DNA from: Thermoproteota archaeon
GTDB lineage: Archaea > Korarchaeota > Korarchaeia > Korarchaeales > Korarchaeaceae
Direction: 5' to 3'
DNA: 64,000 nt
NCBI GenBank assembly: GCA_015522685.1
Contig: WALU01000049.1
Location: forward strand, 1 to 64,000
The notes under the pieces are model-generated. The model did no database searches. It worked only from the letters and a program-made list of their open reading frames with translations, and was not told where the DNA came from. The position numbers and the translations under genes are program-made. This document shows positions 14,117 to 15,602 of the stretch, piece by piece. Position 1 is the first letter of the stretch. Every line of letters starts with the position of its first letter.

Positions 14117-15177
14117 TTTCCATCCCTTATAGCATCAATAAATAAATCAAAGATCCATGATGTATCCATAGGGCCAGGAGAGGATTCGGGGTGAAATTGC
14201 GTGGTGGCTATCGGCAGATATTTATGATAAGCCCCCTCAAGTGTTCCATCGTCTGGGTTTACAAACCATTCAACAAGATCGGCTTCCTTTAAACTCTCCC
14301 TTCCAACGGCGAATCCATGATTCTGGCTAGTTATATAGCATCTACCTGTTCTTAGATCCTTGACGGGTTTATTCTGGCCTCTATGACCATATTTCATCTT
14401 GAAGGTTTCAGCTCCTAAGCCAAGAGCGATAATCTGGTGACCTAAACATATTCCTAAAGTTACGATACCTTCGGTAGCCATATCTACTGCAATCTTTCCT
14501 TGCGATCTTAAAAACTCTGGATTACCGGGGCCATTTCCAAGCAGGAGAGCATCCGGTTCTAAAGACCATATCTCTTCCAGAGAAGAGTAGCAGGGAACTC
14601 TGACAACACCAAGCCCTCTTTTTAATAATTCTCTCACTATTCCCAGCTTTAATCCACAGTCAAGTACTACTACTAAAGGCTTGGAGTGACTCTCCCATAT
14701 AGGACGAGAGGGAGACACTTCCTTAACATAATCAACTTCATCATAAGATGGAGCATCTACTAACTTCCTCCACAGACTTTCTAGATCAGGATTTCTTTCC
14801 CACACTCCTAAGGCTCCTTTCATTACCCCAACATTCCTAAGCTCCTTTGTTAAGGCTCTAGTATCTACCCATTGGACTATTGGAACATTATATTCATCGA
14901 GCCATTCTTGCAGAGATAGATCTGAGTCCCAATGAGATATATCTGTAAGCTCATGTATCACCAAGCCAGTTACCTGAACCTTATCAGACTCCAAGAGGGA
15001 TGTGTTCACCCCATAGTTTCCGATAAGTGGGTTTGTCATGACCAATATCTGACCCTTATAGCTAGGATCACTAAGAGATTCAGGATAACCAACCATCCCT
15101 GTGGTGAAGACTACCTCACCAAATACAAGGCAGGGTCTACCAGTACTACATCCAAGGTACATTGAACCGTTCTCCAA
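14104..15177 (-). CDS. carA: carbamoyl-phosphate synthase small subunit (5' end anomalous)
   Basis: [28 protein letters not shown], QFHPE; homologous-looking sequence continues upstream of the TTG with no in-frame start. Confidence 0.95.
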   Translation of the reverse strand: [357 protein letters not shown]

Positions 15178-15199
15178 GATTAAGGTAGAAGGTTTACAT

Positions 15200-15223
15200 T
15201 CATATGGGCCGAAGGAAATACAT
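15200..15223 (-). other. 7-codon leader ORF MYFLRPI with CTT-CGG-C candidate +1 frameshift site into carA
   Basis: TTTTTAAA box, then GAGGGT, then ATG TAT TTC CTT CGG CCC ATA TGA; carA frame is +1. Confidence 0.45.
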
Positions 15224-15602
15224 GCGTACCCTCGTTAGCTGGTAATTCTCATTTAAAAAATTAACTAATTTTCTACGTACACCTAATTCATCAAGGAGTA
15301 GAGATCATCATTTGCATTCAAGCTGCTGGCTACTTCAGATGTTGCAATGGCTTTTCCTCACCGAACTCTCGGTATCTGTAATCTGTAGAATGAATTCCCT
15401 ATGATTATGACCGTCTTTCAATGCTTCTCTTCCTTCCTTTTCATTCGACTTAGATGATAACCTCTCTTAACGAAGAGTTTCCCTGACGAGGTGAGGCTAG
15501 AGAGCCTTATGATATAGAAGATTGAGATGCAAACTATTTTTTTAGCAAAACTCTTTCATTCTTCAATTATTAGATAAAATTAAACCTACCATCACAATTT
15601 AT

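Follow-up and report, generated by a model that had tools for sequence, protein, structure and literature searches.

We found that carA of a genus of Korarchaeaceae is out of frame with its promoter-proximal ATG, and that a +1 shift at the heptamer CTT-CGG-C would bring the two into one frame. The gene encodes the glutaminase small subunit of carbamoyl-phosphate synthetase. We analyzed it in a window of 64,000 nucleotides (nt), which is positions 1 to 64,000 of contig WALU01000049.1 from a Thermoproteota archaeon (assembly GCA_015522685.1; this genome is called G000 below), and compared the window locus with its relatives in the genus (21 genomes, with carA in 10). From the comparison of these ten genes, we conclude that carA of this genus is probably expressed by programmed +1 ribosomal frameshifting.

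In the window, carA is on the minus strand. Translation in three frames places CarA in the +1 frame relative to the ATG at 15223. The CarA frame is open from a TAA at 15237-15235, and between this stop and a TTG at 15177 it contains no ATG, GTG or TTG. A sequence-only reading of the window had already described the leader, the GAGGGT in front of it and a +1 CarA frame that is startless before TTG 15177, and its account of the minus strand was exact. The features around the start of carA are as follows.

15252..15259, minus strand: TATA-like box TTTTTAAA; the box starts 36 nt 5' of ATG 15223.
15228..15233, minus strand: GAGGGT, Shine-Dalgarno-like; it starts 10 nt before ATG 15223.
15200..15223, minus strand: 0-frame leader open reading frame (ORF), ATG TAT TTC CTT CGG CCC ATA TGA (MYFLRPI*), which is the product without a shift.
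15223-15221, 15214-15212, 15211-15209 and 15202-15200, minus strand: the leader codons ATG, CTT, CGG and TGA, respectively.
15208..15214, minus strand: putative shift heptamer CTT-CGG-C (site 1), with CTT in the peptidyl (P) site and CGG in the aminoacyl (A) site.
14104..15210, minus strand: carA in the +1 frame, from GGC at 15210 to the stop at 14106-14104, for the glutaminase small subunit.
15175..15177, minus strand: TTG, the first canonical start in the CarA frame; it is the start in the ORF list and a rival start.
15161..15163, minus strand: ATG inside CarA (M of GSMYLG), the start used in the public gene call of a nearly identical protein, P0016 (MYLGCST...).
15118..15123, minus strand: TTT GGT, in frame in the window, the counterpart of a second shift site in relatives (GTT-CGG-T/A).

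At site 1, the C at 15211 would be skipped and GGC (Gly) decoded in the +1 frame. The leader TGA in the window is directly followed by ATG TAA.

We found the same layout throughout the genus. In a six-frame protein search of the relatives, the carA match was split into two frames in several same-genus genomes. All ten carA genes have a TATA-like box, then an ATG, one to four further codons, CTT or GTT, CGG and C, with CarA in the +1 frame. The P-site codon at site 1 is CTT in eight genomes and GTT in two. A 0-frame stop follows two to five codons past the CGG, and the leaders at the ten loci are 5-11 amino acids long (MYFLRPI, MHFVRLPRM, MYLRH, MYLRR, MYLRRRGM and MSVSVLRPSLS). The leader sequence after the CGG varies among the relatives, and the only conserved part is M-x-(x)-L/V-R. 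At the DNA level, TTCGGC is invariant at site 1 (10/10 loci) and is the longest invariant block of the 5' region. Comparison of the 5' ends revealed no in-frame ATG in any of the relatives. The proposal made from the window alone, that carA needs a +1 shift at CTT-CGG-C, is thus strongly supported, as an out-of-frame ATG and (C/G)TT-CGG-C are present in 10/10 carA genes of the genus.

Most of these genes have a second +1 break (site 2). It is present in eight of the ten, all but the window and genome G003, and lies 30 codons after site 1, just 5' of the conserved GEVVF motif. Site 2 is GTT-CGG-T in six genomes, with a TGA directly after the CGG, and GTT-CGG-A in the other two. In the alignment, the window has a one-base gap at this position relative to the eight loci with site 2. 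TTT GGT is therefore in frame there, and the window gene can be read with one shift. All 18 shift sites have a C immediately 5' of the P-site codon.

We scanned G000 for other genes with this arrangement. We defined an N-terminal layout as a started 0-frame ORF ending within 40 codons combined with a startless +1 frame open for at least 150 codons. Only 1 of 1337 NTT-CGG sites had this layout, and it was carA itself. The frame layout of carA at NTT-CGG exceeds chance. In approximately 394 kb sampled from three relatives (G002, G009 and G020), there was no second convincing case of a frame junction at NTT-CGG. The scan of these samples returned six N-terminal-type and three internal-type rows, with one site in both lists. 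At four of the six N-terminal-type sites, the +1 frame has an ordinary ATG a short way downstream. The other two, with no ATG in the stretch viewed, resemble antisense or chance frames. One internal-type candidate in G000, ATT-CGG-G on contig C20, looks like an ordinary gene junction.

Reading through the shift sites restored a complete CarA in every case. We translated each gene from the leader ATG and treated an in-frame CGGN as one step, decoded as Gly from GGN. This gave a stop-free CarA of 371-375 amino acids in 10/10 genes (372 in the window). The 18 shift sites were the sole departures from the standard code in the ten genes, which means that these carA genes contain no ordinary in-frame CGG. 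The window product (P0001) matches Pfam PF00988 (1.4e-45) and PF00117 (1e-42). It thus has the CPSase_sm_chain N-terminal domain and the class-I glutamine amidotransferase domain of CarA, and carB adjoins the gene. In the shifted proteins, the PF00988 match begins at profile position 1, at residues 13-15, and in the version that starts at TTG 15177 it begins at position 3. The nearest named CarA proteins are from Thermoproteota lineages (~50-55% identity).

Alignment to proteins of known structure indicates how site 2 is read. Residues 9-366 of P0004, a product from a relative that is shifted twice, align to residues 3-376 of Escherichia coli CarA, and P0004 also aligns to human CPS1. Against solved CarA structures there is no gap at site 2, and the Gly of GEVVF is supplied by the +1 GGT. 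The ungapped alignment and the source of this Gly argue that the C is skipped and that CGG is not decoded as Arg by a four-base reading. ARAGORN found no suppressor tRNA with a four-base anticodon, with or without its intron search, although its absence is not proven thereby.

The public gene calls for this genus do not contain the restored N-terminus. All ten CarA calls (P0011-P0020) begin internally or in the wrong frame, for example with MYLGCST..., MFAFGEVVF... or MVGYTES..., and MVAAEAVPEFAFGEVVF in these calls is an out-of-frame reading of the segment between the two sites. The database CarA entries for the genus are N-terminally truncated or partly wrong. Because the calls are cut short at the N-terminus, pathway reconstructions may score the gene as damaged.

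Outside the genus, carA has an ordinary start. A search of 40 genomes from the rest of the class gave four carA genes (in G024, G027, G028 and G047), each matched in one frame only. An in-frame ATG is present in G024, and GTG or TTG candidates lie in frame in G027 and G028. A wider genome search added three distant carA loci, and 80 further loci came from metagenomes; the metagenome loci all had at most 53% identity, none was from the genus, and they served only as outgroups. Distant archaeal loci L015 and L018 have in-frame ATGs. In 75 of the 80 metagenome loci, an in-frame ATG, GTG or TTG lies upstream of the match before any stop. Of the remainder, four have an ATG within the first matched residues and L107 was left without assignment.

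Two observations on these outgroup loci are recorded here in their own right. High-GC carA genes at L107, L108, L111, L113-L115, L120, L128, L140 and L143 share a stretch, AAATGTTAAGG ... TTCGGGTTC ... ACGCCCGTGCC, that is located ~60-110 nt upstream of an LEDG motif, before or within the N-terminus. At some of these loci the only start is a GTG 12 codons upstream. The stretch looks like a conserved leader element unrelated to the archaeal shift site. At L012 (G034:C1), a distant archaeal carA, there is no in-frame ATG, GTG or TTG after the upstream stop, in the region ~70 nt upstream of LILSDG. A GGAGGG is found 6 nt before an ATT codon, followed by a run of seven A's, which suggests an ATT start or a slippery run.

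The offset is almost certainly not an artifact of sequencing or assembly. Such an error could occur in a metagenome-assembled genome, and the depth of the one run that holds the region (X1) is only ~5 and X1 may be the source sample of the window. However, a separately built contig of X1 that covers 15081-15574 has no inserted or deleted base, so the check for an indel that the sequence-only reading had called for came out in its favor. X1 is the only public run holding the region, which was not found in run X3. The stronger argument is that nine other species share the offset, eight of them with a second one. We regard an error as effectively refuted. The X1 contig has one substitution, 15141 C>T, by which a Gly of CarA becomes Ser (STGRP to STSRP); P0016 has this variant too.

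We found that the segment between the two sites evolves as a protein-coding sequence in the +1 frame. Each codon position of that frame occurs 29 times in the segment, and among nine genomes 17 first, 11 second and 26 third positions vary. This pattern indicates that the inter-site segment is translated in the +1 frame.

Site 1 is conserved beyond what the encoded protein requires. Across the whole of carA, 172 alignment columns have an invariant residue for which more than one codon is possible, and a single codon is kept in 11 of these 172. None of 28 invariant Gly columns keeps one codon in all ten genes. The Gly at site 1 is GGC in 10/10.

We built a maximum-likelihood tree of the ten carA genes and five outgroups. 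The ten genes form one clade (100/99), with G003 as sister to the other nine (100/98). The window is nested inside the group having site 2, together with G013 and G019 (100/98). The simplest history would be that site 1 arose in the ancestor of the genus, that site 2 arose after the G003 split, and that a one-base change removed site 2 from the window lineage. The carA lineages of the genus have diverged to 60% protein identity.

The ATG at 15223 bears the marks of a real start, judged by its spacing from upstream motifs. Among 621 ORFs of G000 that begin with ATG, TATA-like motifs are most frequent at -38 to -28 and GAGG, GGAG or GGTG at -14 to -9. The TATA-like box (-36) and the GAGG (-10) of ATG 15223 fall within these genome-wide peaks. 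The box is kept as TTTTT(T)A(A/T)AT in the DNA alignment of the genus, and GAGGGT is present at 9/10 loci. Alternatively, GAGGGT could be at or near the transcript start. With the usual archaeal TATA spacing, the transcript would begin a few nt 5' of the ATG, or directly at it in the case of G003. A transcript start this close before the ATG would leave it as the only usable start.

Our results might also indicate that there is no frameshift and that CarA is made from internal starts, such as TTG 15177 or ATG 15163 for the window gene and, for the relatives, a GTG or the Met of TTGMVGYPE. The short ORFs would then be upstream ORFs (uORFs) or untranslated. All public calls for the genus do start internally, the TTG in the window removes just two PF00988 profile positions, and a GGAG lies 12 nt upstream of ATG 15163. 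However, in the eight species with site 2 the longest unshifted product is ~20-40 residues short at the N-terminus and has lost the first strands of the domain, and all 80 outgroup loci and the solved structures keep these strands. In the window, a start at TTG 15177 would delete the first beta strand (STLI). The position of this TTG is CTC, CTT, TTA or TTG in the relatives, and that of ATG 15163 is an ATG only in the window among the ten loci (GTT or GTC in relatives, TAC in G003). Internal starts also do not account for an inter-site region that evolves as a +1-frame protein homologous to CarA or for the invariance of TTCGGC. We consider this explanation improbable.

Two variants of an unshifted start were rejected. 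A non-AUG start in the CarA frame would have to lie between the upstream stop and GGC, where the codons are unconserved and in G003 are just GCG TCC TTC. Termination and reinitiation after the leader would need a start in the CarA frame within reach, and there is none in the eight species with site 2.

If the frame is corrected, it is probably the ribosome rather than the RNA that makes the correction. Removal or bypass of the extra C in the RNA, by editing or by polymerase slippage, seems extremely improbable. The bases at the site (TT, C, GG) do not form a homopolymer on which a polymerase could slip, and the motif matches a known ribosomal shift heptamer. The available text of a 2021 review describes no editing by single-base deletion in archaea (PMC8211752).

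The codon in the A site is rare. G000 has 41.8% GC, and in its 1099 long ORFs CGG accounts for 280 of ~377,000 codons (0.7 per 1000), or 1.2% of Arg codons. It is the rarest sense codon of the genome. AGA and AGG together make up 92% of Arg codons, so that the rarity of CGG and the dominance of AGA/AGG, previously judged by eye, are borne out by the count. In samples of three relatives with 53% GC, G002 (200 kb), G009 (160 kb) and G020 (34 kb), CGG is found at 2.2-2.6 per 1000 and is among the three to five rarest codons. Within the ten carA genes summed, which come from related genomes, CGN codons are 30/41 of the Arg codons in the first 40 codons and 8/198 in the rest. Without the shift sites, they are 12/23 in the first 40 codons. 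Every leader holds one CGG, which is a codon for Arg, the end product of the pathway.

The tRNAs for the proposed slip are present. G000 has tRNA-Arg genes with anticodons CCG, UCG, GCG, CCU and UCU, as well as tRNA-Leu(GAG) and tRNA-Val(GAC). One gene for tRNA-Arg(CCG) was found. An identical gene (100%) is in nine further genomes, eight of them with carA, and G003 has its own copy. CGG is therefore decodable, and a shift must compete with normal reading.

We infer that the route is a slip in the P site. Translation would begin at the promoter-proximal ATG, which is 15223 in the window. After one to four codons, CUU (GUU in two species) would occupy the P site, with the rare CGG in the A site. 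Slow decoding of CGG would give the peptidyl-tRNA time to slip ahead by one base and re-pair. A tRNA-Leu(GAG) that slips from CUU to UUC would exchange the third-position G:U for G:C, and on UUC the pairs would be G36:U, A35-U and G34-C. Such re-pairing is compatible with general pairing rules, and tRNA-Val(GAC) moving from GUU to UUC would keep two of three pairs. Gly-tRNA would then decode GGN, and the ribosome would continue in the CarA frame. Ribosomes that decode CGG normally would end after a peptide of 5-11 amino acids. In eight of the ten species, the shift would have to be repeated at GUU-CGG-U/A, 30 codons on.

The genes on either side of carA bear on what such a shift might be for. 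They are the following.

11015..14116, minus strand: carB, large subunit of carbamoyl-phosphate synthetase (TIGR01369, 1203.8 bits).
15603..21495, minus strand: LysW-type arginine/lysine biosynthesis cluster, directly upstream of carA, identified by NCBIfam matches.

The carB ATG is 13 nt before the carA stop in the window. The carA/carB overlap is kept in 10/10 loci and is 13 nt in nine of them and 22 nt in G003. Given this overlap, translation of carB is probably coupled to that of carA. The LysW-type cluster contains, in descending coordinates, lysX-like, argC/lysY, lysZ/argB, lysX, lysJ/argD and lysK/argE genes. Directly upstream of the cluster, also on the minus strand, is a gene pair for the Bax1 endonuclease and the XPB helicase (21746-24576).

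The yield of CarA may rise when charged tRNA-Arg(CCG) is scarce. The sites would then act as an arginine-starvation switch for carbamoyl-phosphate synthesis, a weaker proposal, to which we give a little less than even weight. The sequence-only reading had likewise suggested that most full-length CarA would be produced when arginine is limiting. Arginine control is plausible because the presumably slow codon is an Arg codon, the gene feeds arginine synthesis, an arginine cluster adjoins it, and coupling of carB is possible. The complete form of the proposal is an arginine-sensing switch made of one or two hungry-codon +1 sites, in which plentiful tRNA-Arg(CCG) would lead to the early stop and scarcity to CarA and the coupled carB. 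This form is more tentative still. Two sites in series would steepen the response.

Several observations weigh against programmed shifting or against its control by arginine. First, the heptamer is not avoided in other genes of G000, as CUU-AGG-C is in yeast. In the 1099 ORFs, in-frame CTT-CGG was observed 7 times (6.3 expected) and GTT-CGG 6 times (6.2 expected), for a total of 13 (12.5 expected). Either shifting at the bare heptamer is poor or it depends on additional context. Second, in Saccharomyces cerevisiae, changing the Ty1 site to CUU-CGG-C severely reduced shifting, according to the accessible part of PMC12719033. Third, re-pairing from GUU to UUC leaves a first-position mismatch. 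Fourth, we did not find a conserved stimulatory RNA structure at the ten loci: the RNAalifold covariation term was -0.14, with a compensatory change at 1 of 24 predicted pairs. Fifth, G000 has pyrB alongside argF. The presence of pyrB means that one carbamoyl-phosphate synthetase also serves pyrimidines, which control by arginine only would throttle. Sixth, several of the genomes are very close to each other, so the ten represent only about five well-separated lineages. Finally, carB of G020 (L179, G020:C2:21800-25900, minus strand) has in-frame stops at codons 106 and 478.

Candidate RNA elements near the site were rejected. A 6-bp helix predicted by RNAalifold, CGAGGG/CCUUCG, has no compensatory change, and its CGAGGG arm is probably 5' of the transcript start, given the distance from the TATA box. 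A UUCG tetraloop at the site has closing bases that are unpaired by eye. A scan against Rfam gave no family at threshold, and no alternative terminator and antiterminator hairpins were found. The Rfam family Phe_leader matches at 15406-15543 on the plus strand, in the lysK-carA spacer, with 22.7 bits against a gathering threshold of 55 (E 0.3); this is most likely a chance match.

In G020, the first carB stop is a TAA where G009 has TAT (Tyr), and the second replaces a Gln of G009 and G002. There is also a one-residue deletion. The gene is otherwise very close to that of G009, and G020 carA (P0006) has unusual substitutions. The operon of G020 may be recently decaying, or its consensus or assembly may be poor.

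It is also conceivable that carA is a pseudogene or is being lost in the genus, with the frame breaks as fixed inactivating mutations. The stops in G020 carB and the unusual substitutions in its carA would fit this notion, as would the absence of a carA match from 11 of the 21 genomes. However, a single-base offset at the same heptamer persists between genes that are down to 60% identical in protein, and there is no other stop or frame break across ~370 codons in any of the ten. Furthermore, G009 and G002 each have a carB that is uninterrupted over 1032 codons, third positions take a disproportionate share of the substitutions, and both breaks are at the same rare motif. We judge this explanation very improbable. 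Some of the 11 genomes without carA are incomplete, and five are near-complete (G012, G015, G016 and G017, 99%; G014, 96%). Carbamoyl-phosphate synthetase appears to be patchily distributed in the genus.

A different possibility is that the +1 shift is real and constitutive. It would set a fixed low yield of CarA and the coupled CarB, or it would be a tolerated 'frozen' indel, and arginine would play no part. All of the evidence for a frameshift fits this explanation equally. The heptamer is not avoided elsewhere in G000, carbamoyl phosphate is needed for pyrimidines, and the window lineage lost site 2 and kept the gene, which shows that the number of sites is not critical. On the other hand, two sites in series multiply the loss of product, which would be costly unless adjustable. 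The presumably slow codon is for Arg in an arginine-pathway gene beside an arginine/lysine cluster, CGN codons for Arg crowd the leader region, and site 1 was kept in every lineage since the ancestor of the genus. On balance we find a constitutive shift doubtful.

Several known systems resemble a programmed +1 shift in carA in part. In bacteria, prfB, the gene for release factor 2 (RF2), is autoregulated by a +1 frameshift at CUU-UGA-C. As is proposed for carA, it has CUU in the P site with a G34 tRNA-Leu, a slow A site that is sensed, an early shift and a short 0-frame product. Site 2 of the six species with a TGA directly after the CGG also recalls prfB. Unlike prfB, carA has a sense codon and no stop in the A site, and the proposed signal is charged tRNA-Arg, not a release factor. 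The distance from the end of GAGGGT to the P-site codon is 13 nt in the window and 10 nt in the G009 group, not ~3 nt as in prfB. This distance fits a role with the start codon rather than as a stimulator of shifting.

Carbamoyl-phosphate synthetase of fungi is controlled by a short upstream frame. The arginine attenuator peptide, encoded by a uORF of CPA1/arg-2, stalls the ribosome as a nascent peptide when arginine is high. The gene controlled is a carA orthologue, a short upstream frame is translated, and arginine is the signal, as proposed here. In carA of this genus, however, the leader peptide is unconserved beyond M-x-(x)-L/V-R, the cell would be sensing too little charged tRNA, and the result would be a change of frame and not a block to reinitiation.

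In the trp, his and phe leaders of bacteria, codons for the end product set the speed of the ribosome and hence expression of the operon. The carA leader is likewise short and contains an end-product codon, but its output would be the reading frame and not termination of transcription. The marks of attenuation or of a conserved-peptide uORF, alternative hairpins or a conserved leader peptide, were absent from the ten loci.

Recoding of a cellular gene has a precedent in archaea. The alpha-L-fucosidase gene fucA1 of Saccharolobus solfataricus has a -1 frameshift at A-AAA-AAT with a putative stem-loop, as described in the available part of PMC8211752. According to the same portion of this 2021 review, fucA1 is the only demonstrated frameshift in a cellular archaeal gene; a +1 event is apparent only in the haloarchaeal virus HSTV-2, and a possible frameshift is mentioned in Mg-chelatase. 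Like carA, fucA1 is a cellular archaeal gene in two frames with rare codons near the site; as far as that text goes, it differs in shifting by -1 and at a single site. A search of the literature outside subscription journals and supplements found no report of a frameshift in archaeal carA.

Rare CGG codons serve as shift sites in another system. The accessible sections of PMC5009743 cover hungry-codon shifting and describe +1 shifts at rare CGG(A)/UGG(A) in the mitochondria of glass sponges. There, as in carA, a very rare CGG is a +1 site that leads onto a GGN Gly codon. The sponge sites, in the account given in those sections, are mitochondrial and scattered over several genes, are read as Ty3-like, and come with no proposed regulatory logic.

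If arginine control holds, carA would be the first natural case of starvation frameshifting used as feedback on the pathway of the same amino acid, and a functional counterpart of attenuation. We suggest that carA is a testable candidate for amino-acid sensing by recoding. The logic of the scan, a rare codon after NUU combined with an N-terminal domain in another frame, is applicable to other archaeal genomes.

The closest likeness is to the Ty1 type of shift site. In budding yeasts, Ty1, ABP140 and YFS1 (YPL034W) shift +1 at CUU-AGG-C, this heptamer suffices for at least 40% shifting in yeast, and three Kazachstania species have CUU-CGG-C, as reported in the available part of PMC12719033. In carA, as at these sites, the P-site codon is CUU for Leu, the A-site codon is a rare one for Arg, and the +1 frame offers GGC (Gly). 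Like YFS1, as presented in that part of the article, carA combines a short AUG-initiated upstream ORF with a startless main ORF that has a conserved N-terminal extension. Also as in the Ty1 type described there, the heptamer is conserved, flanking synonymous sites vary, and some lineages have secondarily lost a site. The differences are that carA is in Archaea, encodes a core metabolic enzyme, mostly has two sites in series, also uses GUU, and is known from sequence alone. Furthermore, a cognate G34 tRNA-Leu(GAG) is present in G000, and yeast uses a near-cognate UAG tRNA. Our results strongly support +1 recoding here and are most consistent with the notion that carA has a Ty1-type hungry-codon +1 site, often in tandem, in a cellular archaeal metabolic gene. 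If so, carA would be the first cellular gene of archaea with a programmed +1 frameshift, and the slip logic of yeast and bacterial ribosomes would extend to those of archaea.

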